47,560 bases of DNA from a virus (lineage: Duplodnaviria > Heunggongvirae > Uroviricota > Caudoviricetes), in the IMG/VR virus record IMGVR_UViG_2630968533_000001, one strand, 5' to 3'. Numbering within the stretch: position 1 is the first letter of the stretch; every line of letters starts with the position of its first letter. Positions 1 through 47,560 of the stretch are shown here, in pieces. Position numbers and translations under genes: made by a program. The notes beneath the pieces were generated by a model that worked only from the letters and a program-made list of their open reading frames with translations, did no database searches and was not told where the DNA came from.

Positions 1-6
1 TGATAA

Positions 7-31
7 GCCCCTGTTGCAAAGGGGCTTTTTT
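7..31 (+). terminator. Rho-independent terminator (GCCCCT stem / AGGGGC, then T-run)
   Basis: Hairpin gcccct-gttgcaa-aggggc followed by TTTTTT at the window start; implies a + strand gene ending just upstream of the window. Confidence 0.5.
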
Positions 32-40
32 GTGCTCATA

Positions 41-153
41 GAATTATATAATTATATATTTATATAAAAAGTGCTTTACAGGTGGGAAAAAATTTCCTAT
101 GGTTATGCCCGAAACCGAGCGATACCCGCCCTGGTTAAACCGGAGATAACCCG
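41..153 (+). promoter_or_regulatory. Conserved promoter-leader cassette, copy 1 (AT-rich palindrome, -35 TTTACA 75-80, 17-bp spacer, -10 TATGGT 98-103, conserved leader, GGAG SD)
   Basis: Near-identical to 9344-9461 and 16303-16415; sigma70-like hexamers with 17-bp spacing read directly; ends at ATG 154. Confidence 0.55.
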
Positions 154-534
154 ATGAGCATGATTAAAATCCGCAAAAACGCTTTCCTTAAAATTCAAAC
201 TATCCTGGCTGGTTCTGTTGGCGTGATTTGCCGTTCTTCTTCAAGCCGCATCGATGACGGCTACGATGATGAGTATCGTTTGTCCTCGTGCGATGAGGCT
301 TTAACCTGGCTGAAGGAGAATCAGGAACGTGCCCAGGTATATCTGGAAACAGAGAACGGCAATCAGATGCTCCGTATTAGCGGTCGTTATGGATTTGAAA
401 CCACATTCATGGCCTATTTTAATCAGGCTTACTTTGACAAGGAGTTGGCCTGGTACACTGATCGCATGAGCAAAAGCGAGCCAGCCCCGATTACACCGCC
501 GAACGATAAACCATTTTTATTCCTCGTTAAGTAA
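154..534 (+). CDS. Hypothetical protein (126 aa) expressed from cassette copy 1
   Basis: ORF track; ATG directly after the conserved leader and SD; no domain recognised. Confidence 0.6.
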   Translation: MSMIKIRKNAFLKIQTILAGSVGVICRSSSSRIDDGYDDEYRLSSCDEALTWLKENQERAQVYLETENGNQMLRISGRYGFETTFMAYFNQAYFDKELAWYTDRMSKSEPAPITPPNDKPFLFLVK

Positions 535-2246: not shown

Positions 2247-3416
2247 TTATGGTCTGCTCTTCTGTGCCAGCTTATCAGCACATGTTTTTATCAGATCCTG
2301 TAGTGTCCTGGCTGGCAGGTTTGCATCCAGTACGCTGAGTATGCTGTTGTGATCTGCTTGGTCGACTACTTTGCCTGTCGGTGGTAGTAGCTTGAGCTGA
2401 GGATTCAGGTTTTCGTCAAAGCTGATAAGTGCTCTGGCGTTTCTGAGCAGATCAAGAAGTAAGGCTGATATCACATTTTCCTGAGTCATTGCTGACAGAT
2501 TTAGCGCCGCTTTGGTTTTCCCTGTTGCCTTGTCAAACTCCTTGATTAGTTCCTTCCTGTAGTTCGGTTCCGTTAATAGCCGATTATGCTCTGTTGCCGC
2601 GCGGATAATCGTTTTTTCCTGGTACAGTCGTTTAGCCAGATCACGCTCGTACTGTGTTTTTAACACGCTGCTGATAGCGTTAAAGGCTTCAATGTAGGCC
2701 AGCTTGATATCTTTCACGCCTGGACCGTCGATACTTTCCATGAGCAAGGTAAATCCGTCTTTTGTCATGCGATAGATTGTTATTTCGCGGTCGCTTCCTT
2801 CCAGCGGTCGTTGCTCTTTAAAGAAATGACGTGCCGCAGCTGTGCGAGGAATGCGTAACGCATCGATGGCCATAACGATGGAATTGTTTGTGGTGCTGAA
2901 TGCCTGGGCAACATCGGCTGAGGTTGTGAGTGGCTCGTTGTTGCACACCTTAATGTAAAACATCGGTTTGGCGTTGAGCGTATCGACAACCTCACGAGCA
3001 TTGTTTGGCGAGACGGTTACGGTCGCGGCCGTTTGTGTGTTCTGGCTGAAATAGCAGTCTTCCAGCCGTTCGAACACATCCCAAGCCTGATCGGTTTCAA
3101 GCATTTTGGCGTGACGTGCAGCCCCGCGTTCTGTCCAGAGAATGAGGGAGCGGGCTTTCGGGGAAATTTGTAACCCTCTTAAAGATGGTTGCACATTTTG
3201 TGAGTGACTTAAAGTCACTCGCAAAGTTTTTAACTCATCGCCAGCCACTTTGAAAAAATGCTTTCCTTCAATAAAGCGGTTTGCGTTACGTGAGTAATTT
3301 TTTTTGATGTTATCAACGTCTGTGCCGTATAGCTTTGCCAGTAGTTCAGTAGTGATAACGGGGATCTGGTTATGCAGGATAGGCTGTAGGGTGTTAACGG
3401 TCGGAAGCGTTTTCAT
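2247..3416 (-). CDS. Phage antirepressor (N-terminal ORF6N-like and Rha-like domains)
   Basis: ORF track; N-terminal motif ITTELLAKLYGTDVDNIKKNYSRNANRFIEGKHFFKV typical of ORF6N antirepressors; central PLTTSADVAQAF segment Rha-like; start overlaps the stop of the upstream small ORF (ATGA). Confidence 0.65.
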   Translation of the reverse strand: MKTLPTVNTLQPILHNQIPVITTELLAKLYGTDVDNIKKNYSRNANRFIEGKHFFKVAGDELKTLRVTLSHSQNVQPSLRGLQISPKARSLILWTERGAARHAKMLETDQAWDVFERLEDCYFSQNTQTAATVTVSPNNAREVVDTLNAKPMFYIKVCNNEPLTTSADVAQAFSTTNNSIVMAIDALRIPRTAAARHFFKEQRPLEGSDREITIYRMTKDGFTLLMESIDGPGVKDIKLAYIEAFNAISSVLKTQYERDLAKRLYQEKTIIRAATEHNRLLTEPNYRKELIKEFDKATGKTKAALNLSAMTQENVISALLLDLLRNARALISFDENLNPQLKLLPPTGKVVDQADHNSILSVLDANLPARTLQDLIKTCADKLAQKSRP

Positions 3417-3604: not shown

Positions 3605-3769
3605 TGTGATGATTCCCTTAAAGGTTAAGGATACTCACCACCGTCAGGTTCCAATCATTGGGTGGTGAGACGTGCAGGGTTGGAACTACCGGACACAATG
3701 ACGAACCGGCGAGTCTTACGACTCCCCCGCACGCCCCACCATAATTTGGGTGTAGCAGTGCTTTACGCA

Positions 3770-3869
3770 TAAAAAAACCGCTAACGCGGTATGCGCCATT
3801 GTGTCTACGGGGTTCCAATCCCGACCGTAGATTTTGCTACGGCTCGGAAAGTGTCCACCAATGGCGCAT
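3770..3869 (-). ncRNA. Candidate structured small RNA / leader element (c4-like hypothesis)
   Basis: On the minus strand an 11-bp terminal stem (3791-3801 with 3859-3869) encloses an inner hairpin ctacgg/ccgtag, followed by hairpin accgc-gtta-gcggt and a U7 run (3770-3790); loop sequence has a near-complement at about 3680-3695 in the downstream leader. Confidence 0.25.
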
Positions 3870-4360
3870 TCATGTCAATACGGCGGGATTTTAACAGAGA
3901 CAACCACATAGCGTGGGTTTATTGGTAGGCAGAAACAAAAAAACCGCCCTATTGAGGACGGTTCTTTCGTGCTGATCGGATTCGCGGTCCTTTCAGCATA
4001 ACGTCGTTGTATAAACAACCACGCAAGCACAAGCAGCAAGTTAATTTTACCCAAAAGGTAATAATAGTCCACTATTATGCTTCAAAAAATTGTGGTTCTT
4101 GTTGTGCCTGCAAACTCACAGATTGTGGGTAGGTTACTGATTTTGTGAAAATAAACGAGTTTTTTCGTTTAATTTCTTTCCTATTACTAATCTTAAAATA
4201 ATCGTAAAATACCTGTGGACCTTCCCGCCGATTCGCACCCGGGCACCGACTTTAGGGGAGGATTCTCCGTTGCCGTACATGCAAGCACAAGCAGCCGTGC
4301 TTGCTCTCGCGTTGTTTTCGTCGGTGGGGATGCCGTGAAACGGCCTGTAAGGGCCATACA

Positions 4361-4483
4361 ATGAAAAAATACTGTATGTGTATTTTTATCGTTGTTACTG
4401 GGGCTTTGTTTACGCCACATGGGGAGGGTTGGAAGATTACTGATAACGCTCTGAATGTGACGATAAACATTAGCAGCAAGTAG
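4361..4483 (+). CDS. Small hydrophobic ORF (40 aa, MKKYCMCIFIVVTGALF...), speculative
   Basis: In-frame ATG within ORF 4301-4483; hydrophobic N-terminus; followed by a strong terminator; no SD seen. Confidence 0.2.
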   Translation: MKKYCMCIFIVVTGALFTPHGEGWKITDNALNVTINISSK

Positions 4484-4487
4484 CGAT

Positions 4488-4512
4488 TAGGCCCCTTCGG
4501 GGGCCTTTTTTA
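4488..4512 (+). terminator. Rho-independent terminator (AGGCCCC-TTCG-GGGGCCT then T-run)
   Basis: Perfect GC-rich hairpin followed by TTTTTTAT. Confidence 0.55.
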
Positions 4513-6111: not shown

Positions 6112-6768
6112 TCATAACCAGTTGACAACACTAACTACGCGGCCAAGAACTTTATAACGCTTAAATTCCTCGTTATTCAGATGCTTAGTGTTCATTTCAG
6201 CATCCCTTTCGGTTGACAGCATAACAGCATTGTCACCCGGTATGACTCTACAGTGCCTCAAAACAACCAGGCCATTTCTGTCTTCAAGGGCATAGATCCC
6301 CTCATGAATCTCTGTATCGTCTGTATTAATCAGGACTTGGGAGCCAGGGGATATTGTTGGTGACATTAACTCATCGTTGCTCTGGAGAACTGACAGAGAC
6401 GATGGGTTGATGTTCTTGCTTCGTAGAATCTCCTGTTCTATCGCCAGCACTGGCTTTTCTCCGGCGTGCGATGCTATGTCATTTTTTATAGCTACAAGCC
6501 CAGGAATAACAGGAGCGTTAGTATTCTGGGGTGGGAACGGGTTATCTGTTAAGCACGCGATATAAGGCGCTGATGCTTTCAGGGCGTGCGCGATTTTCTT
6601 GATGGCAGGTATAGATGGTTGTCTTAATCCGGCCTCATAGTTCTGCAAGGTGCTTAAGCCTATTCCAGTGACTTGCTGGAGATCTCCGGCAGTCATGCCG
6701 GATTGTTTCCGTAGAGTCTGAATGCGCAGACCTATTTCTTTCTTGATGTTCTCGTCGTTGCTTTTCAT
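6112..6768 (-). CDS. cI-like repressor (N-terminal HTH plus C-terminal S24/LexA-like peptidase domain)
   Basis: ORF track; N-terminal HTH IGLRIQTLRKQSGMTAGDLQQVTGIGLSTLQNYEAG; C-terminal autocleavage-type domain; divergent from the cro-like gene. Confidence 0.8.
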   Translation of the reverse strand: MKSNDENIKKEIGLRIQTLRKQSGMTAGDLQQVTGIGLSTLQNYEAGLRQPSIPAIKKIAHALKASAPYIACLTDNPFPPQNTNAPVIPGLVAIKNDIASHAGEKPVLAIEQEILRSKNINPSSLSVLQSNDELMSPTISPGSQVLINTDDTEIHEGIYALEDRNGLVVLRHCRVIPGDNAVMLSTERDAEMNTKHLNNEEFKRYKVLGRVVSVVNWL

Positions 6769-6941: not shown

Positions 6942-7436
6942 ATGACCTTTCAGGAGTGGGTTGACGAAAATGGAGGCCAAATTGGTGTTGCCAGAAAGTT
7001 TGGCTTTACGTCATCACTGATTGGTGCCTGGTATCGCTTCGAGAGATTCCCTCGTGCGGATAACCTGACGCTGCTGGTGGCGTATTCGGAAGGCCGGATT
7101 AACGTCCAGCAATGGGCGGCAGATTTTGCCGAACGTCAGCGCCAGCGTAGCGATGGCACATCGGTTCGGCAGAACAAGATCAAAGGGAATCTCCCTGTTA
7201 ACTGCTTATCAAGGCTGAAAGCGGTTTTCTCTGAGCTGGGGATGCCTGCGGAGCGTTGCAATCTACGCGGTCCGCGATTCATTGCTCGCTGGAAACACTC
7301 ACACGTAACCGTTTCAGAGGTTCGTGATGCGATTACCGTGCTGGAGCTTAAGAATAAAGATTCCAGCGATATCGAGCTGATTCATAAGGAGATTAGCAAC
7401 GCCCGGCGTTCAGCACTTGGGAGGCTTGAGGAATGA
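6942..7436 (+). CDS. Cro/YdaS-like HTH regulator with C-terminal extension (164 aa)
   Basis: ORF track; N-terminus FQEWVDENGGQIGVARKFGFTSSLIGAW resembles Cro/YdaS-type HTH; first gene of the rightward early operon. Confidence 0.5.
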   Translation: MTFQEWVDENGGQIGVARKFGFTSSLIGAWYRFERFPRADNLTLLVAYSEGRINVQQWAADFAERQRQRSDGTSVRQNKIKGNLPVNCLSRLKAVFSELGMPAERCNLRGPRFIARWKHSHVTVSEVRDAITVLELKNKDSSDIELIHKEISNARRSALGRLEE

Positions 7437-9343: not shown

Positions 9344-9461
9344 AATCTATAAATATATAATTATAGATTTATATAAAAAGTGCTTTACAGGTGGGAAAAA
9401 ATTTCCTATGGTTATACCCGAAACCGAGCGATACCCGCCCTGGTTAAACCGGAGAAATCTG
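9344..9461 (+). promoter_or_regulatory. Conserved promoter-leader cassette, copy 2
   Basis: About 95 bp identical to copies 1 and 3 (TTTATATAAAAAGTGCTTTACAGGTGGGAAAAAATTTCCTATGGTTATACCCGAAACCGAGCGATACCCGCCCTGGTTAAACCGGAG); ends at ATG 9462. Confidence 0.55.
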
Positions 9462-10529
9462 ATGAATAAACAAGTAATTATTTCTGACTGGATCAACAAC
9501 CCTAACAGCCTGTTAAGCACTGATACTGGCTACCTATTACGCCATGTTAATGGTCGTATGGTCAAAAGCGATGAGCACGAAACCTTTTTCTTTGTTGAAG
9601 ACGATGGGCGTATCTATGAGGATGGTTACTCTTATGAAGCCCAAACTGGTTGTATCCCTGCGGAGCTGGTGGACGTAACAGAAGATCTGCGCAAAGCATG
9701 GCTTGAACAGCAGCAGCGCGGAGATGATTACGTAAACACCTATCAGGAACGCCAGAACGCGCGTCTTGCCCGATATATTGCTCGTGCAGAAAAAGCCAGA
9801 AAAGAAGGTGCGGTAGCGCATAAGCGAGCGCATGACCTGTTGGATGTGATCCCGTTAGGCCAGCCGATTTTAGTTGACCATTATAGCGCGAAAGGCCATC
9901 GCCGCCGTTTGTCTAAAGCTGATGCGTTATTCAGAAAAGCGTTTGTTGAATGCGAAAGTAAAGCATCACACTACGAGAGCAAAGCCGCAGGTGTTGGTCG
10001 TAATGGAATTTCGTCTGATGATCCTGATGCGCTATTTAAGTTGCTTCGTAAGCTGCAAGGCTGCATGAAGTCACACGTCAAAATGAAGGCCGCAAATAAG
10101 GCCATTCGCAAATACAAAAAAGACCAAATACAGCAGCTTTCTGCATTAATCGATCTCAGGTTTACAGAAAGCGAAGCCAAAGAGTTACTGGCCGGAGATT
10201 TCTGTGGGCACATCGGATTCCCTTCATACGCACTGAGCAACAATAACGCCGAAATCAAACGACTACAGAGCCGTATTAAGGAGCTTGAATCGGTCAAGTC
10301 TGTAACAGGAGCACAGCGCGAAGAATACGACGGCTTTTCTATGGAGATAGATCCAGAGGATAACCGCATCCTGTTTTATTTCCCTGGCAAACCAGAGGCA
10401 AACATTCGTTCGCTGCTTAAATCACGCGCCTTTAAGTGGAGTCCAACCCGTAATGCATGGGTTCGCAAGATTACTCCAAACGCCCTGGCTGATGCCCGAT
10501 ATCTAAAAGAATCGCTATTGAAAGCCTGA
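9462..10529 (+). CDS. Hypothetical protein (356 aa) expressed from cassette copy 2
   Basis: ORF track ORF 9408-10529, but the ORF-track start lies inside the conserved leader; ATG 9462 sits at the same position relative to the leader as in copies 1 and 3. Confidence 0.55.
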   Translation: MNKQVIISDWINNPNSLLSTDTGYLLRHVNGRMVKSDEHETFFFVEDDGRIYEDGYSYEAQTGCIPAELVDVTEDLRKAWLEQQQRGDDYVNTYQERQNARLARYIARAEKARKEGAVAHKRAHDLLDVIPLGQPILVDHYSAKGHRRRLSKADALFRKAFVECESKASHYESKAAGVGRNGISSDDPDALFKLLRKLQGCMKSHVKMKAANKAIRKYKKDQIQQLSALIDLRFTESEAKELLAGDFCGHIGFPSYALSNNNAEIKRLQSRIKELESVKSVTGAQREEYDGFSMEIDPEDNRILFYFPGKPEANIRSLLKSRAFKWSPTRNAWVRKITPNALADARYLKESLLKA

Positions 10530-15331: not shown

Positions 15332-15407
15332 GGCCCCTTAGCTCAGTGGTTAGAGCAGGCGACTCATAATCGCACGGTCATCGGTTCAAATCCGGTAGGG
15401 GCCACCA
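15332..15407 (+). tRNA. tRNA with CAT anticodon (tRNA-Met or lysidine-type tRNA-Ile2-like)
   Basis: Cloverleaf read by hand: acceptor GGCCCCT/AGGGGCC, D-arm GCTC/GAGC, anticodon loop CTCATAA (CAT at 15365-15367), T-arm ATCGG-TTCAAAT-CCGGT, encoded CCA; G1-C72 paired so not an initiator; 5' half resembles E. coli ileX as recalled. Confidence 0.85.
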
Positions 15408-15714: not shown

Positions 15715-16302
15715 ATGGAGGAAATTGCATTGTTTAATCTGATTTATGCAGATCCCCCCTGGGAATACAAAGACAAGTGTAAGGATGGGAATCGTGGAGC
15801 TGGTTTTAAGTATCCAACGATGAAAGCTGAGGAGATTGCTCGTATTCCTGTCTGGCAGCTTGCTAATCCTGAATCGTGTTTGTTGGCCATGTGGTGGGTT
15901 CCGACTCAGCCAGAAGAAGCGTTGCTGGTGGTGAAAGCATGGGGATTCAGGCTTATGACCATGAAGGGCTTCACATGGAACAAATGTGGTAGCCGACAAC
16001 CAGATAAGCTGGTGATGGGGATGGGGCATATGACTCGTGCAAACAGTGAAGATTGCTTGTTTGCGGTAAAAGGCAAATTGCCGACCCGCCTTGATGCGGG
16101 GATCATTCAGTCGTTTACATCGCTTCGTCTGGAGCATTCTCGGAAGCCTGATGTGGTTCGTGACAAGCTGGTAAGGCTGTTAGGTGATGTTCCTCGTATT
16201 GAGCTGTTTGCTCGCGGTGATTTACCTGATGGTTGGCATGGCTGGGGCAACCAGTGCAATGGAGGTATCCAGTTGCATGATGCTCTCTGGCAAGTGGCAT
16301 AG
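15715..16302 (+). CDS. MT-A70 family adenine DNA methyltransferase
   Basis: ORF track; catalytic DPPW motif in LIYADPPWEYK near the N-terminus. Confidence 0.8.
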   Translation: MEEIALFNLIYADPPWEYKDKCKDGNRGAGFKYPTMKAEEIARIPVWQLANPESCLLAMWWVPTQPEEALLVVKAWGFRLMTMKGFTWNKCGSRQPDKLVMGMGHMTRANSEDCLFAVKGKLPTRLDAGIIQSFTSLRLEHSRKPDVVRDKLVRLLGDVPRIELFARGDLPDGWHGWGNQCNGGIQLHDALWQVA

Positions 16303-16415
16303 AATTATATAATTATATATTTATATAAAAAAGTGCTTTACAGGTGGGAAAAAATTTCCTATGGTTATACCCGAAACCGAGCGATACCCGCCCTGGTTAA
16401 ACCGGAGATAACCCG
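16303..16415 (+). promoter_or_regulatory. Conserved promoter-leader cassette, copy 3
   Basis: Near-identical to copy 1; perfect palindrome TATATAATTATATA at 16306-16319; -35 TTTACA 16337-16342, -10 TATGGT 16360-16365. Confidence 0.55.
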
Positions 16416-16685
16416 ATGAAAGTACAAGACCGTGAAGTAGTAAAAAACCTCCTGCAATACCTGACCTCAAAAAACCTGACGAGCAGCGTTGAGTTCCGTG
16501 AAGCGTTAAAACATTTCAACGTCACTACGGTTTATCGTTGGGAAAACAAACATTCTGAAAGACCGTATGTGGTGGATGTTTTTGCGCCTGATATTGAGTG
16601 CGGTTTTGAGCGCCATTCATTCAAAAAGAAACATTCCGCTGATGTTTTTTGTGAGGTTGTATGTGCGGCAGGAGATGATGAGTGA
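16416..16685 (+). CDS. Hypothetical protein (89 aa) expressed from cassette copy 3
   Basis: ORF track; ATG directly after the conserved leader. Confidence 0.55.
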   Translation: MKVQDREVVKNLLQYLTSKNLTSSVEFREALKHFNVTTVYRWENKHSERPYVVDVFAPDIECGFERHSFKKKHSADVFCEVVCAAGDDE

Positions 16686-18289: not shown

Positions 18290-18913
18290 ATGACAAAACA
18301 ACTTAATGTGGTTTCTTTACCACTTTCTGTGTTGATTGGTTATGAAAAGAACGCTCGCACACACTCCGTGGAGCAGGTAGATCAGATTGTTGCCAGCATA
18401 CAGGAGTACGGATGGACTAATCCGATCCTGATAGACGAGAACAACGTTGTAATTGCTGGTCATGGTCGAATTGCTGCGGCCACTCAGTTGGGGATGGATG
18501 ATGTTCCCTGCATTGTTCTGGCTGGGCTAACGGAGAATCAGAAGAAGGCATATCGTCTGGCCGACAACCGTATTCCGCTGAATGCTGGTTGGGATGAAGA
18601 GCTGTTAAGCGCGGAGCTTGCAGATCTTGCGGCCGATGATTTTGCTCTGGACTCAATTGGTTTTACTCAGCGCGAACTGGATAACTTATTGAGTGCGGCG
18701 GTCTACGATGACACAGAGGGTATGGATATCCCATTTGAGAAGGATGAGGCCAAATCAGGCGTAAAAGTTCAGTACCTGTCATTTGGAGGTCATAAAATCC
18801 CGGCAACGGATGAGGAAGCGGATCGTTTTGACTGCGCGGTGTCTCGTTATGTTGATGATAATGGCAGCTATATCGGATTTGTATCCGCATTGCTGGCTGG
18901 GGAGGTGTGCTAA
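18290..18913 (+). CDS. ParB/Srx-like N-terminal domain protein
   Basis: ORF track; ParB-like nuclease-domain pattern with AGHGRIAAA; paralogue of the gene at 21579. Confidence 0.7.
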   Translation: MTKQLNVVSLPLSVLIGYEKNARTHSVEQVDQIVASIQEYGWTNPILIDENNVVIAGHGRIAAATQLGMDDVPCIVLAGLTENQKKAYRLADNRIPLNAGWDEELLSAELADLAADDFALDSIGFTQRELDNLLSAAVYDDTEGMDIPFEKDEAKSGVKVQYLSFGGHKIPATDEEADRFDCAVSRYVDDNGSYIGFVSALLAGEVC

Positions 18914-20286
18914 TGCTTCACCTCAATTACGACATAACGCACCTACGCGGCGCGGAATATAACCCGCGTTTTATCGGTGAAGATGATCTTGCGAGGCTGG
19001 CGGAAAGCGTCAGGGAGCTGGGGCTTGTGAAGCCATTGATAGTGCGCGGCGATTTGCTGGTGGCGGGACACCAAAGGACGAAGGCGCTACGTAAGTTGGG
19101 AATAACGCGTGCTGCGGTGTATGTGTTGCCCTGTGAAACGACGGTATACGACGAAGTACGGTTTAACCAACTGCATAACGGAACGGATTTTGATAGCGGA
19201 GATGAGCGTTGCAGGGTGTCCGGTCTGGAAGATAAGCATGGTTTTGTTCAGGTATCGGCAAGCCAGATCTCAGGCAATATGCGCGCGAAAATGGCATATG
19301 TTCGAAAGAACATAGCGGAACTGGTTATCAAGTATGGTCCGTGGGGTGGTTGTGTTGCGACTCAGTCTGGCGAGGTTATTCACTGTGCTCAGTATGCATT
19401 AGCAGCGAAGATGACGCGTACACCGCTAACGGTGTTTGTGATCCCTGATGTTGAGAAGGAAAAATACCAAAGTTATCTGAATAAAACTTATGGTGTATTT
19501 GAGTATTCTCATCTGGAGAAAACAACATACATCCAGACGTATGCGCAGCTTATGCGGTTGCGTAATGGTGGCAGCCTGAAATCAAACCTGTATGAGTCGT
19601 TGATCCTCCCGATCATTGCCAAGACGCCAAGAGGAATTGATTTTGGTTCGGGGCAGGGAGACTACGCGCGAATGCTCAGGGCAAAGGGATATAACCTGCA
19701 TGATCTCGAGCTTTTCCGCCGTAAGGGCGCTGGAAACACTCTGGATAGGACCGCAACAAACCGGATGATTGATACGCTGGTGGACGACTTAAAAACGCGA
19801 GGGCGTTACGACTACGTGATTTGCGATAGCGTTTTGAACTCGGTCGATAGTGTCGAGGCTGAATGGTCCGTTCTGACGGTTCTGAAAGGCTTGTGTAAAG
19901 CTGGTGGGTCAATATTCTTTTCTGGCCGTAGCCGTGGAGAGCTGGAAACAGTCCTGAAGCAAACACAAGCTGCGAGTTCCAAAAGCCGGCTTTATTTTAT
20001 TGATCATAACGGTTTTACCGCGTTGTACCGGAAGGGGCACTGGTTTTACCAGAAGTTTCACTCTGATGAGGAAGTGAAGCAGTTGTGTCGTGTACATGGT
20101 TTCAGGATTAAGCGGTCAATATTCAACTGTAAGAGCTGGTATTTGCACGTCATTAACGATGATTCCCTTAGTTGGGCGAGTCTGGAGAAAGCTGTTCGTT
20201 TTGAGTTTGAGTTGCCGTTGCCTGGTGGTTCAACAATCGGACGATCTGATGATGTGCTGGCGGCTTTCCGGCCGTTGATTAAGTAG
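18907..20286 (+). CDS. ParB-like N-terminal domain fused to a class I SAM-dependent methyltransferase-like domain (459 aa)
   Basis: ORF track; N-terminal LIVRGDLLVAGHQRTKALRKLG ParB-like; C-terminal GIDFGSGQGDYARML (motif I-like) and RYDYVICDSVLN; no DPPY/NPPY DNA-methylase motif seen. Confidence 0.6.
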   Translation: MLMLHLNYDITHLRGAEYNPRFIGEDDLARLAESVRELGLVKPLIVRGDLLVAGHQRTKALRKLGITRAAVYVLPCETTVYDEVRFNQLHNGTDFDSGDERCRVSGLEDKHGFVQVSASQISGNMRAKMAYVRKNIAELVIKYGPWGGCVATQSGEVIHCAQYALAAKMTRTPLTVFVIPDVEKEKYQSYLNKTYGVFEYSHLEKTTYIQTYAQLMRLRNGGSLKSNLYESLILPIIAKTPRGIDFGSGQGDYARMLRAKGYNLHDLELFRRKGAGNTLDRTATNRMIDTLVDDLKTRGRYDYVICDSVLNSVDSVEAEWSVLTVLKGLCKAGGSIFFSGRSRGELETVLKQTQAASSKSRLYFIDHNGFTALYRKGHWFYQKFHSDEEVKQLCRVHGFRIKRSIFNCKSWYLHVINDDSLSWASLEKAVRFEFELPLPGGSTIGRSDDVLAAFRPLIK

Positions 20287-43989: not shown

Positions 43990-44469
43990 AAGATAATCAT
44001 GTGACCAATTATTGTAATAATTTTAATGGTATGTTTCTACTGGCTATCCAGCGTGTCTGATACCCAGTAACAAATCGTTAACACAGGTGCAATCAAATGG
44101 TGAGTGTTAAGACTGGCCACTTATTACCAGGTATGAGGGTATGAGTGGCCAGCATTAAATCAGAACAGCCCTTTAACTGAACTGGCCGCGCTGTTAAGGG
44201 ATGATGTCACCTTATCTTTGAAGCCGGACAGCATATTGCTGAACGATGAGTTTACCGCAGGTTTCTGGCTGGGAATCATTGACTGGAGTTAGGCCAGTAG
44301 TATGATGCTCGCAAAACGAGATCCAATTTAGATCCTTTTACTGGTGGATTATCGTTCGATCAGTGAGAGACTTCGTGCATGACCGAAAGTGTTGTGGTAG
44401 AGTTCTCTTAAAACCACGTAACGTGGTTATGATTGTGGGTGTCTGGTTGGAAAGTGACCAGATATGGAA

Positions 44470-44590
44470 ACAAAAAGCCCGCAGATAAATCTGCGGGCTT
44501 CTTGCGACATCCACGGAAAACCAACAATTAACCATGGGCGCCTCGACAACTCCCATTATACGTTGGTTTTCCGTGGACGCAAGAGCGAAC
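44470..44590 (-). ncRNA. CopA-like antisense RNA region (copy-control hairpins in the repA leader)
   Basis: On the minus strand: long stem-loop (44510-44577, arms TCCACGGAAAACCAAC / GTTGGTTTTCCGTGGA) followed by hairpin GCCCGCAG-ATTTA-CTGCGGGC and U-run (44471-44499), the architecture of IncFII CopA antisense RNAs. Confidence 0.45.
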
Positions 44591-44592
44591 AT

Positions 44593-45441
44593 ATGGATAG
44601 ACCAATGCCGTCTCTACGTTCAGCTTACGTTTGTAATTTGTCGCCGGAGTTCCAGCCTCCAAAGCACCATACGCACAAGCTGCCGCTGGTGTTATCTGAT
44701 GCTTTACAGCGCATTAATGGGCGTGATCTTACGTGTGAGGTTGCGTTCTACGTTAATCAACCGTCAGAGCGGAAGCGCCGGATAAACGAGCATCGTCGTC
44801 GGGCGATTAATGCTGTGATCGCTGCGATTTTGCACCATGTAAACATCATTTCTAAGCGGGTTCTGGCCAGTGCTGAGGCGTTGGCTGATTTTTGCGGCCT
44901 GTCTACCGTATCCGAAGCTGGGAACAAGTCTATAACACGCTGTACAAGGGCGTTGTCGCAACTGAAAGCGTTAGGTTTTATTGATTATGAACGTCGCTGG
45001 GATCGGGTGAATAAACAGTATTGGCCAGCGAAAATAGAGATTCGTGATCAACTGCTGGAAACCGTTGGTATTACTGAACAAGCATGGAGACGTGCGGTTA
45101 GCCAGAAACTTAATTACTTCAATGCGAAGAATAGCGAACGGCTTAAAAAAGCGATAACGGAGGCTGATTATAAGCGTATTGTTATTCAGGAGCAGATGGA
45201 GAATGTATGGCGTCAGAGGAAGACGGCCAGAGAGATAAAGGCAAAACAGAAAGCAGCGGAGAGAGCTGCGCGTCTTGTTCGGGAAAAGGGAGAGGCCGAA
45301 CTTCGTCATCAAATCACTAGAGAGGTTAGCCAGGAATTTGCTGATGGCATGTATCCTGGAGCTGACCTTGCATATTTACGATCCCTCGTTGAGCAGCGTT
45401 ATAACAGGTTAAGAAAGACCTGGAAATCACTCCAACATTAA
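44593..45441 (+). CDS. repA: Replication initiator RepA (IncFII RepA1-like)
   Basis: ORF track ORF 44464-45441; core CGLSTVSEAGNKSITRCTRALSQLKALGFIDYE recalled as close to R100/R1 RepA1; start placed at ATG 44593 to match the ~285-aa length of RepA1. Confidence 0.75.
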   Translation: MDRPMPSLRSAYVCNLSPEFQPPKHHTHKLPLVLSDALQRINGRDLTCEVAFYVNQPSERKRRINEHRRRAINAVIAAILHHVNIISKRVLASAEALADFCGLSTVSEAGNKSITRCTRALSQLKALGFIDYERRWDRVNKQYWPAKIEIRDQLLETVGITEQAWRRAVSQKLNYFNAKNSERLKKAITEADYKRIVIQEQMENVWRQRKTAREIKAKQKAAERAARLVREKGEAELRHQITREVSQEFADGMYPGADLAYLRSLVEQRYNRLRKTWKSLQH

Positions 45442-45479
45442 CCCACCTGAATGATGAATCCGGTTTTACCGGAGGATTA

Positions 45480-45700
45480 TCTACGTCGCAATAAAACATC
45501 TGTTCAAAAAACAATCTAAATTAATTTTCTCTAAACCTGAACACAGCAAAAATATCGCCTTTACAGGCATCGGCTAATAAAGTTATCCACAGTTTTGATA
45601 TGTATATGCAAATGGTTTTTTATAATAGATGCACTAAACAAATAAATGCAAAATCACTTTCTTTTATTAAGACTTTCTTTATTTAACTTACGCAGGCTTT
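45480..45700. promoter_or_regulatory. Putative origin region with DnaA box TTATCCACA (45583-45591) and AT-rich tract
   Basis: Perfect DnaA-box consensus directly downstream of repA followed by about 100 bp of AT-rich sequence, as in IncFII oriR layouts. Confidence 0.45.
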
Positions 45701-45910
45701 GCCTGTGAATATGTTCGCCCTTGCAGCGAGCTAAAGCTCGCGCCGGTTCGAGTCGCTACGCTCAAATATACCTCCTCCGGCACTTGCCGGAGGCATGGAG
45801 CAGCCTGATCATCCTTTTCGAAACGGCGCGTTTCGAACTATACAAAATCAATTTATATAAGGCCGAAATAAGGCCTACGGCCGGGCTTTGCAGGAGGAAG
45901 GGGCGAGCCT
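45700..45910. repeat. Cluster of five short GC-rich hairpins
   Basis: Perfect short inverted repeats caggc/gcctg, gcgagc/gctcgc, ctccggca/tgccggag, cgaaacg/cgtttcg, aggcc/ggcct within 200 bp. Confidence 0.35.
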
Positions 45911-46072
45911 TATCAATAAACGTCGATAAATACGCACACAGTAGCCATCAGAACGCGATAAAACGTAAGAAACATCATTTCCTATTAGACATAGAAAACT
46001 TGTCTTATACGCAATGTAGTAAATTTCTATTGCCACATAGGAAAAGATTTCCTACCATCGTAGATATAATAA

Positions 46073-46372
46073 ATGGAGATGGTTATGGATAAAGATACTG
46101 TTTTAAAAATGTTGAATCCGGCTTGTTTAAAAAAAGCGGATGAATGGGAATCTCCTACATGTGGAGAAGTTCGGGCAGTCATTGGCCTGACCGGAATGAG
46201 CGGCTCGCAGTTAGCCAAAAAACTAGGCTTAAAAGATAGTCGCAATGTTCGCAACTGGCAGATGTTAAAGGAGTCCACATCCAGATCCAGCATTCCGTAT
46301 GCAGCCTGGGCGCTGCTGTGTTACTTCGCTGGGTTAGGGTTAATCTTCATTGATAACAAAACAGATGTTTGA
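46073..46372 (+). CDS. Putative HTH DNA-binding protein with hydrophobic C-terminus (99 aa)
   Basis: ORF track; GEVRAVIGLTGMSGSQLAKKLGLKDSRNVRNWQ resembles an HTH. Confidence 0.45.
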   Translation: MEMVMDKDTVLKMLNPACLKKADEWESPTCGEVRAVIGLTGMSGSQLAKKLGLKDSRNVRNWQMLKESTSRSSIPYAAWALLCYFAGLGLIFIDNKTDV

Positions 46373-46659
46373 AACATGCAAATATGAGGTTTGTTATGGA
46401 ACTTGTACGCAAAACACGCAAAGAGTTCTTGGACCTGTATCGCATGGGAGCTTTCACTTGTGTTGTGGCTACCCAGGACGAAGTGACAAAAAGCTGGCGG
46501 CTTTTTGCTCTCAATAAAAAAGGGATTGCCGTTTTCATTGAAAAAGCCCGTGGTGGTATCCGCGAATGGGCGGGATTGAATTATGTGGCTGATTTTTGCG
46601 CAGCTATGGGGATTCGTCGCTGGGAAGTCCATATGCCAGGAGTAAAGTCACAAAAATAG
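46369..46659 (+). CDS. Hypothetical protein (96 aa)
   Basis: ORF track; coupled to the upstream gene. Confidence 0.45.
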   Translation: MKHANMRFVMELVRKTRKEFLDLYRMGAFTCVVATQDEVTKSWRLFALNKKGIAVFIEKARGGIREWAGLNYVADFCAAMGIRRWEVHMPGVKSQK

Positions 46660-46897
46660 GACTTTCGCGTCGAAAATGAGGCGAAACTGAAAACGAGATT
46701 TCATTAACAAATAAGCAACATAAAAAACGGTGGAAAACGCCCAGGAAAACATGATCTTTTGAGCGGATTTTTTAGATCCGACAATGAACGGTGATCCGGT
46801 GGTGCCGATAACGTCCATTATGTTAAATAGCCCCGTTTTTCTTGAAATTATAACTCACAGGTTATATAGTTAGTGATATAAACTACAGGTTATAGGA

Positions 46898-47251
46898 TTG
46901 AGCATGTGGACGGTACTTTTTAGCCAGCGATTTGACGACTGGCTAAATGAGCAAGAAGACGCTCTTCAGGAAAAGGTTTTGGCTGATTTGAAAAAGCTAC
47001 AGGTTTACGGACCTGAGTTACCCAGGCCATATGCCGATACCGTAAAAGGTTCTCGGTACAAAAATATGAAAGAGCTTCGCGTTCAGTTTTCTGGCCGTCC
47101 GATAAGAGCCTTTTATGCGTTCGATCCGATTCGCCGGGCCATCGTTCTTTGTGCAGGAGACAAAAGTAACGATAAGCGGTTTTATGAAAAACTGGTGCGT
47201 ATAGCTGAGGATGAGTTTGCAGCACATCTGAACACACTGGAGAGCAAGTAA
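46898..47251 (+). CDS. RelE/ParE-superfamily toxin (HigB-like gene order)
   Basis: ORF track; KELRVQFSGRPIRAFYAFDPIRRAIVLCAGDKSNDKRFYE matches the addiction-module killer signature as recalled; toxin gene precedes the antitoxin. Confidence 0.7.
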   Translation: MSMWTVLFSQRFDDWLNEQEDALQEKVLADLKKLQVYGPELPRPYADTVKGSRYKNMKELRVQFSGRPIRAFYAFDPIRRAIVLCAGDKSNDKRFYEKLVRIAEDEFAAHLNTLESK

Positions 47252-47550
47252 TGAGAACATTAGATGAGGCGATTGCCAGCCGTTCACCTGAAAGCCAGGC
47301 GCGAATTAAAGAAATGGCAGATGAGATGATTCTTGAGGTCGGCTTGCAGATGATGCGTGAAGAACTCCAGTTATCACAAAAACAGGTTGCTGAGGCGATG
47401 GGTATAAGCCAGCCAGCAGTAACAAAGCTGGAGCAGCGCGGAAATGATTTAAAGCTGGCGACATTAAAGCGTTACGTTGAAGCTATGGGAGGCAAATTAA
47501 GCCTGGATGTTGAGCTTCCCACAGGAAAACGAATAGCGTTTAACATCTGA
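47251..47550 (+). CDS. HTH (XRE-type) antitoxin, HigA-like
   Basis: ORF track; start overlaps toxin stop (TAATG); HTH LSQKQVAEAMGISQPAVTKLEQRGNDLKLATL. Confidence 0.7.
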   Translation: MRTLDEAIASRSPESQARIKEMADEMILEVGLQMMREELQLSQKQVAEAMGISQPAVTKLEQRGNDLKLATLKRYVEAMGGKLSLDVELPTGKRIAFNI

Positions 47551-47560
47551 TCAGAACGAA

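Follow-up and report, generated by a model that had tools for sequence, protein, structure and literature searches.

The toxin-antitoxin (TA) systems of the gp49/Tad-Ata family, among which are Tad-Ata of Paracoccus pAMI2 and gp49-gp48 of phage N15, and the KorC repressors of conjugative plasmids are the described systems closest to the locus considered here. Toxins of the gp49 family belong to the RelE/ParE superfamily, act as ribosome-dependent mRNases and are always encoded before their antitoxins; they are separate from the classical HigB families and from HigB2 of Vibrio cholerae (PMC11980606 Table 1; PMC5906591), and their members include the Tad toxins, HigB1, HigB2 and HigB3 of Mycobacterium tuberculosis and HigBA of Acinetobacter baumannii (PMC5906591; PMC11980606 Table 1). 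On RP4 and RA3, KorC has several operators and acts as a global repressor. When RP4 enters a new cell, the expression of klcA rises about 120-fold (PMC7314908), and on RA3 KorC is the main global regulator and heads a bicistronic korC-kfrC operon (PMC7414963). We have analyzed a window of 47,560 nucleotides (the whole stretch of DNA studied, IMG/VR record IMGVR_UViG_2630968533_000001) that represents a complete circular phage-plasmid of Escherichia coli of 47.6 kb, with position 1 following position 47560, since a single BLAST alignment to a Salmonella relative spans both the end and the start of the window. Just past its replication origin there are four small open reading frames (ORFs), all on the plus strand and confirmed at the positions given by an initial annotation made from the sequence alone. 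We propose, with a probability of about 0.72, that they form two separate units beside the origin: a TA operon of the gp49/Tad-Ata family and a bicistronic operon headed by a KorC-family repressor gene (gene 1) that carries a second gene (gene 2) as cargo. The coordinates of all the features are collected in Table 1.

The relationship of gene 1 to KorC was apparent from the protein comparisons. By BLASTP its product was 51% identical over 80 amino acids (aa) to an IncP-1 KorC (WP_011114067, E 4e-23) and 41% identical to a second IncP KorC (WP_003019685, E 2e-16), and the alignment takes in the C-terminal IPYAAWALLC..AGLG. The initial annotation had described a helix-turn-helix (HTH) protein with a hydrophobic tail; the sequence is real, but the tail is the conserved C-terminus of KorC. 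Its interpretation as a membrane anchor was rejected, and the same segment also aligns with AcrIF24. On IncP-like contigs, a gene 1 homologue (52% identity) is located directly after klcA-klcB and before kleE-korA-incC-korB, i.e., in the korC slot, and a tblastn search of plasmids matched 3927 records, several of them annotated as korC. The sequence matches found in the PDB were the HTH (Aca) domain of AcrIF24 (1.5e-5) and Aca3 (0.017), the match to KorC being far stronger. In every database record that we inspected the gene appears as a "hypothetical protein". Its most likely start is ATG 46085 (95 aa), which is preceded by GGAG 6 nt upstream and is also the start used in RefSeq.

The promoter-like site of gene 1 carries in its spacer a palindrome (Table 1) whose form matches the IncP klcA operator, TAGGGCATTATGCCCTA. 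In the same place upstream of the gene 1 homologue, an Enterobacter relative has the perfect palindrome TAGGAAAATATTTCCTA and the Salmonella relative the perfect palindrome TAGGAAATATTTTCCTA, both with unchanged half-sites. When we searched the window allowing up to one mismatch, exactly three further sites were found, all of them TGGGAAAAAATTTCCTA, at 83, 9392 and 16345, so that the motif is present four times, against 0.02 expected in shuffled sequences. These three sites are located in cassettes of ~110 bp that are near-exact repeats of one another and end in a Shine-Dalgarno sequence and an ATG, each operator lying in the spacer of a TTTACA-17-TATGGT promoter. The register of the operator is identical at the four promoters (4/4), beginning 3 nt after the -35 hexamer and ending 2 nt into the -10 hexamer. 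Cassette 1 drives a gene at 154-534 (126-aa ORF) and cassette 2 a DUF3560 gene (9462-10529) followed by further ORFs, including one for an Ead/Ea22-like protein. Cassette 3 precedes a gene at 16416-16685 (89-aa ORF), with same-strand ORFs continuing up to the genes for ParB_N and methyltransferase proteins (18290-20286). In the Salmonella relative, whose repressor is 72% identical, all four sites are found at equivalent genomic positions with diverged leaders and flanks, and the three cassette sites are perfect TAGGAAAATATTTCCTA palindromes. All four operator sites are also present, at conserved positions, in a Yersinia phage.

The cassettes can also be aligned with the promoter-leader regions of klcA from two IncP-type plasmids. 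They have in common the -35 context, a spacer palindrome of 17 bp (T.GG...CCTA), a block reading CCGAGC and, at the start codon, AACCGGAGA..CGATGA, and the IncP klcA promoters compared here carry TAGGGCATTATGCCCTA or TTAGGACATTTTGCCCTAA at the equivalent position of the spacer. Taking together the homology to KorC, the placement of the operators between -35 and -10, the homology of the cassettes to klcA and the literature on KorC, we infer that the product of gene 1 would bind these operators and repress its own operon and the three cassettes. The initial annotation had spoken of a possible regulatory role for genes 1 and 2, which was right but undersold, given a KorC-family repressor with apparently four operator-bearing promoters across the genome.

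Further half-sites were seen upstream of the gene 1 promoter, TTTCCTAT-N5-ATAGAAAA at 45978-45998 and TTTCTAT at 46024-46030. They are not evident in the Enterobacter relative and may be auxiliary repressor sites or chance matches. Regarding the genes around cassette 3, the one at 15715-16302 has as its counterpart in the Salmonella relative an ORF annotated as MT-A70 methyltransferase. The stretch 18290-20286, downstream of the cassette and on the same strand, contains a gene for a ParB_N protein and then one for a ParB_N-methyltransferase fusion, and both may be part of the KorC-controlled set.

The resemblance to the kil-kor regulon of the IncP-1 plasmids (RK2/RP4) and to IncU RA3 is therefore to be found at several levels. 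The protein identity is 41-52% over the whole fold; the operator is a 17-bp palindrome with TAGG...CCTA ends placed in the spacer of a strong promoter, with several copies per replicon; the promoter-leader cassettes are homologous to klcAp; and the regulator gene heads a bicistronic operon, as in korC-kfrC of RA3. There are also clear differences. The host is a tailed temperate phage-plasmid with an IncFII-type replicon and not a conjugative broad-host-range plasmid, the inner bases of the operator are GAAA instead of GGCA, and the KorA and KorB partners are absent from the phage-plasmid. Besides, the controlled genes are not klcA or kle but uncharacterised ORFs, the gene of the DUF3560 protein and possibly the ParB_N-methyltransferase. 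In the literature consulted, nothing was found on a KorC circuit in phage-plasmids.

Gene 2 follows in the same orientation, and the two genes still look like one operon. The size of 96 aa given in the initial annotation has been revised, since the most likely start of gene 2 is ATG 46396 (87 aa), with GAGG 5-6 nt upstream, where all the 87-89-aa homologues begin; the two genes are then separated by 23 nt and do not overlap. The start at TTG 46369 that would give the 96-aa overlapping version was rejected on the basis of the Shine-Dalgarno sequence and the N-termini of the homologues. Several 97-aa "homologues" found in databases are frameshift chimeras with an ORF in the +1 frame. Gene 2 had no match in Pfam, NCBIfam, PADLOC or the PDB, a Pfam scan of gene 2 and 12 diverse homologues found nothing, and PHROG 4595, to which it belongs, is a family without an assigned function. 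A profile search retrieved ~200 clusters, all from Enterobacteriaceae and mostly from the nin regions of lambdoid prophages, and another over 1.8 billion representatives gave 27 relatives only, none of them informative. The two AlphaFold2 models (predicted local distance difference test, pLDDT, ~70) have a small beta-alpha-beta3-alpha-beta fold, and the best structural matches (eL38, the periplasmic domain of FtsH and uncharacterised phage proteins) were uninformative on function.

The distribution of gene 2 is that of an accessory phage gene. In Salmonella and Klebsiella chromosomes its homologue stands alone in a lambdoid nin region, without a KorC-like neighbour, between the replication genes and ninG/Q and just upstream of a dinI-like gene. 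In the Salmonella phage-plasmid the homology to the window ends after the stop of gene 1 and resumes at 46683, so that gene 2 appears as a single-gene indel of ~310 bp between the stop of gene 1 and the region upstream of the TA pair. The Enterobacter relative is also devoid of it. Since gene 2 is a single-gene indel in relatives and its homologues stand alone, an obligate pairing with gene 1 is excluded, and the data fit an optional cargo expressed from the KorC-controlled promoter. An anti-defence role, or one in establishment or host interaction, is our guess from its context.

The other unit begins with the toxin gene. Its product scored 81.2 bits against Pfam PF05973 (Gp49/DUF891; cutoff 23.9, E 5.7e-23), covering profile positions 1-89 of 90, and the Salmonella orthologue scored 79.8 bits. 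It also matched a PHROG annotated as "toxin" (2e-33), and RefSeq already lists it as a RelE/ParE family toxin. Its start was set at ATG 46904 (115 aa) because the homologues begin with MW. The antitoxin matched Pfam HTH_3 (3.9e-10) and, in the PDB, HigA3 (4.8e-5) and HigA2 (2.5e-4) of M. tuberculosis and another HigA (0.0046). The final A of the TAA that ends the toxin gene (47249-47251) is also the first letter of the antitoxin ATG (47251-47253), giving a TAATG with 1-nt overlap. Both this overlap and the toxin-first RelE/ParE-type module had been noticed in the initial annotation and are borne out by the PF05973 toxin and the XRE-HTH antitoxin; the term HigBA-like used there is loose but acceptable, the more precise assignment being gp49/Tad-Ata. 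The systems of this family resemble the pair in the toxin-first bicistronic operon, a toxin well above the PF05973 threshold, a XRE-HTH antitoxin related to HigA2 and HigA3 of M. tuberculosis, palindromes over the promoter and a location on a plasmid or phage-plasmid. In contrast, this pair is without a close characterised relative and its toxin without a PDB sequence match, and the toxin is neither of the classical HigB families of Rts1 or E. coli (PF05015, PF09907) nor of that of V. cholerae HigB2 (PF06296). Records of Yersinia phages label the toxin "higB2"; the identification with V. cholerae HigB2 was dropped, as the latter is in a different Pfam family, PF06296 (PMC11980606).

The regulatory sequences of the TA operon were also recognizable. 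Two TATAAC-N6-GTTATA palindromes (0.12 expected in shuffles) accompany a sigma-70-like promoter, and an intrinsic terminator is found across the circular junction, ~15 nt past the antitoxin stop (Table 1). In the Salmonella relative, with a toxin 90% and an antitoxin 89% identical, both palindromes are kept as TATAAGC-N4-GCTTATA, a symmetric change of C/G to G/C in both arms of both copies. This is the pattern that would be expected of a real operator bound by a dimer.

The module has been found in other backgrounds. The stretch 46815-47540 has 95% DNA identity to the pair adjoining pla on Yersinia pestis pPCP1 and to the one on small E. coli plasmids, and the module is a mobile cassette. A homologous gp49/XRE pair is located between cse1 and cas3 in the type I-E CRISPR-Cas locus of Salmonella enterica subsp. 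houtenae (AGRM01000002.1, L019 601-1202), with the gp49 toxin gene interrupted by a stop codon. In the Enterobacter cloacae relative, HicA and HicB (Pfam 4.8e-23 and 2.4e-30) occupy the equivalent slot, beside the origin and between the korC-like gene and the next cassette. HicAB is likewise a toxin-first type II TA module, but from unrelated families (the HicA mRNA interferase and HicB). This fits an interchangeable addiction slot adjacent to the origin, filled by gp49/HTH here and by HicAB in the relative, and such slot-swapping is the best available argument for an addiction role. The role in plasmid maintenance put forward in the initial annotation agrees with the position of the pair next to the origin, with HicAB in the Enterobacter slot and with the presence of the same cassette on pPCP1 and small plasmids.

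Table 1. Positions in the window of the genes, regulatory sites and other elements of the two units and of the three cassettes.
Feature	Position	Strand	Evidence and details
DnaA box TTATCCACA	45583-45591	+	Sole perfect DnaA box of the window; downstream of repA
Promoter-like site of the korC-like operon, TTGCCA-17-TACCAT	46030-46058	+	Promoter scan, 9/12; same geometry as the cassette promoters
Proposed KorC-like operator, perfect 17-bp palindrome TAGGAAAAGATTTCCTA	46038-46054	+	In the spacer of the gene 1 promoter
Gene 1, KorC-family HTH transcriptional repressor, 95 aa	46085-46372	+	BLASTP to IncP-1 KorC
Gene 2, accessory phage protein, 87 aa, phrog_4595	46396-46659	+	Co-oriented, 23 nt after gene 1
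Promoter-like site of the TA operon, TTGAAA-17-TATAGT	46842-46870	+	Promoter scan, 10/12 matches, sigma-70-like
TA operator 1, palindrome TATAAC-N6-GTTATA	46849-46866	+	In the promoter spacer
TA operator 2, TATAAACTACAGGTTATA	46877-46894	+	Between the -10 hexamer and the toxin start
Toxin, gp49/Tad family (RelE/ParE superfamily), 115 aa	46904-47251	+	Pfam PF05973, PHROG, RefSeq
Antitoxin, XRE-type HTH, 99 aa	47251-47550	+	Pfam HTH_3, PDB HigA matches
Intrinsic terminator closing the TA operon	5-33	+	Terminator scan: 8-bp stem, 5 GC pairs, then TTTTTGT
Promoter-leader cassette 1	46-158	+	TTTACA-17-TATGGT, operator TGGGAAAAAATTTCCTA at 83-99, conserved leader, ATG 154
Promoter-leader cassette 2	9355-9466	+	Operator 9392-9408
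Promoter-leader cassette 3	16308-16420	+	Operator 16345-16361

According to the model that we propose, the first unit (46842-47550 plus the terminator at 5-33) would be a type II TA operon of the gp49/Tad-Ata family (HigBA-like). Judging from the family, the 115-aa toxin would be a ribosome-dependent mRNA endonuclease that is neutralised by the 99-aa XRE-HTH antitoxin, and the latter, alone or in complex with the toxin, would repress the operon through the two TATAAC-N6-GTTATA palindromes, which cover the promoter spacer and the transcription start. Cells losing the low-copy episome would lose the labile antitoxin and be killed or stalled (post-segregational killing); both the toxicity and this killing are suggested by homology and by the architecture of the motifs. 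The second unit (46030-46659) would be a bicistronic operon with the gene of the KorC-family repressor in first place. A KorC dimer is predicted to bind TAGGAAA-N3-TTTCCTA between -35 and -10, shutting off its own promoter and the three near-identical cassettes with operators at 83, 9392 and 16345. Because the repressor would act in this way on its own promoter and on the cassettes, the four promoters would give a burst of transcription in a newly entered cell devoid of the repressor and fall silent as the repressor accumulates, matching the burst-then-silence pattern reported for KorC and klcA of RP4. Gene 2 would ride on the korC-like promoter as an optional single-gene cargo, and our working guess is that it encodes an early establishment or host-interaction protein.

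Other explanations have been considered for genes 1 and 2. The initial annotation had suggested that they could be a second addiction pair, in which the HTH protein would be an antitoxin or autoregulator and the small downstream gene a toxin. They are indeed small, adjacent, co-oriented and beside the origin, the first one encodes an HTH protein, and many antitoxins are HTH autorepressors. However, the relatives from Salmonella and Enterobacter have kept gene 1 but lack gene 2, gene 2 homologues are found alone, without a KorC-like neighbour, in hundreds of lambdoid prophages, and gene 2 matches no toxin or antitoxin family and no toxin fold. Besides, the membership of gene 1 in the KorC family with four dispersed operators and the absence of overlap between the genes with the best-supported start codons make this pairing highly improbable. 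A second alternative is an anti-defence cassette of the type formed by anti-CRISPR (acr) and anti-CRISPR-associated (aca) genes, in which gene 2 would provide an anti-defence protein in the burst at entry and gene 1 would be the Aca-like repressor that shuts it off. The usual order is acr and then aca, the reverse of the layout of genes 1 and 2, in which the regulator comes first. Gene 1 does resemble Aca-type repressors in the sequence of the HTH (the AcrIF24 domain and Aca3, with the E values given above) and in the inferred logic, that of a small autorepressor that would damp a strong early promoter of a small accessory gene, and gene 2, a small gene of variable presence, is confined to Enterobacteriaceae and found in accessory (nin) regions of phages. 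The KorC of IncP, for its part, controls the anti-restriction gene klcA (PMC7314908). Nevertheless, the regulator is here upstream of the cargo and not downstream, and it would control four dispersed promoters and is kept in relatives that dispense with gene 2, unlike a dedicated Acr regulator. The cargo has no similarity to known Acr or anti-defence proteins, and its fold matches (PDB, BFVD) are uninformative. We consider this alternative unlikely, although it is compatible with the two-unit model and would refine it.

The control of the cassettes and the role of the TA pair also admit other readings, and several points weigh against the ones that we prefer. The three cassettes might be under another regulator (a CI-like protein, a small HTH protein or a late activator), their likeness to the gene 1 palindrome being coincidental or vestigial. 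The phage-plasmid encodes a CI-like repressor (6112-6768), other small HTH proteins and a C4/Ant immunity region, and in the window the cassette operators are imperfect palindromes (TGGGAAA / TTTCCTA) to which another protein could in principle bind. Against this, the gene 1 promoter and the cassettes share the 7-bp half-site and its placement with respect to -35 and -10, the three cassette sites of the Salmonella relative are all perfect TAGGAAAATATTTCCTA palindromes with TAGGAAATATTTTCCTA at its gene 1 promoter, and the cassettes are homologous, operator position included, to the KorC-controlled klcA promoters of IncP, so that a different regulator appears quite improbable. Regarding the TA pair, a search of the PDB with the toxin sequence (single sequence and a 5-sequence profile) gave only spurious matches, its presumed RelE/BECR fold is taken from the Pfam family assignment only, no published experimental test of the pair, the pPCP1 copy included, was found in the literature, and post-segregational killing is just one among several documented roles of type II TA systems. 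The pair might act mainly as a defence module of the lysogen, by abortive infection or exclusion of competitors, rather than in plasmid addiction. The toxin matches the C-terminal domain of the PADLOC defence-candidate protein NsnC (6e-7), toxins of the RelE/ParE superfamily occur in defence systems (PMC11980606), and S. houtenae has a degraded member of this family between cse1 and cas3. However, the pair is beside the origin in the slot that HicAB fills in a relative, copies of the cassette are found on small plasmids such as pPCP1, and the pair is built like a classical autoregulated bicistronic TA operon. We regard a mainly defensive function as possible but doubtful, and the two roles are not mutually exclusive.

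The backbone of the element is that of a widespread group. The 2.2 kb around the locus are 99.3-99.8% identical to ~50 circular E. coli plasmids of 46-52 kb, including the 48,488-bp plasmid of E. coli ATCC 25922, and 98.8-99.4% identical to the Yersinia phages vB_YpM_39, 41 and 44 (recorded host Y. pestis EV76). The genes of the annotated relatives include those for portal, capsid, tail, tail-fibre invertase and lysis proteins and also those for an IncFII-type RepA and a ParA, a combination that identifies the element as a phage-plasmid. A paper on the "plasmid-like phage" vB_YpM_HQ103 was set aside, as it concerns an unrelated 32-kb P2-like phage. The RepA gene (44464-45441) matches Pfam IncFII_repA (1.3e-43) and NCBIfam RepA_IncFII_LM (1.4e-68) and is followed by an AT-rich origin, with 25-33% G+C across 45450-45700, that includes the DnaA box. 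All these features precede the locus, and its placing just past the origin in the initial annotation is fair. Between the AT-rich origin and the gene 1 promoter there is a cluster of GC-rich hairpins (45690-45900), within a block 72-74% conserved in the Salmonella and Enterobacter relatives; priming or single-strand initiation (ssi) sites are one possibility. An Rfam scan of 45400-47560 matched no RNA family.

Elsewhere on the element we have found other loci that deserve mention. A full-length Rfam match to the ryfA RNA is located at 4215-4511 (plus strand; 141.8 bits, E 1.7e-36). In Salmonella, ryfA presumably codes for TimP, a small toxin under the control of an antisense RNA, and if this is so the match may be a type I TA locus on the same episome. 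C4 antisense RNA and isrK RNA were matched above the Rfam gathering score at 3658-3746 and 3771-3843, both on the minus strand and directly upstream of an Ant-type antirepressor gene (2247-3416, minus strand), a layout that we take to resemble the immI region of phages P1 and P7. The CI-like repressor gene is on the minus strand (PHROG 4, 9.6e-27), divergent from a plus-strand operon that starts at 6942, and presumably acts as the principal lysogeny switch, apart from the KorC-like circuit. A tRNA gene is found at 15332-15404 (plus strand; Rfam tRNA, 67 bits), where the record of the Yersinia phage has a tRNA-Met at the corresponding position.

Phage-plasmids of this ~48-kb family are common in isolates of E. 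coli, Salmonella, Klebsiella, Citrobacter and Enterobacter, and one member was isolated as a phage infecting Y. pestis. The TA module itself is routine, being annotated in RefSeq and shared with pPCP1, and what it adds is mainly evidence for an interchangeable slot. Of more use are the KorC identity of gene 1 and the predicted four-promoter regulon homologous, in promoter and leader, to the kil-kor circuitry of IncP, which give a testable regulatory map for the family. The co-regulated uncharacterised genes, gene 2 included, become candidates for establishment or anti-defence functions. As a tentative extension, which we hold as speculative, the KorC-like repressor and its four promoters might be an "entry burst" circuit taken over from conjugative plasmids, with gene 2 and the cassette proteins as new anti-defence proteins, a set to which the ParB_N-methyltransferase may belong. 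If true, the entry burst would deliver a pulse of establishment or anti-defence functions on infection.

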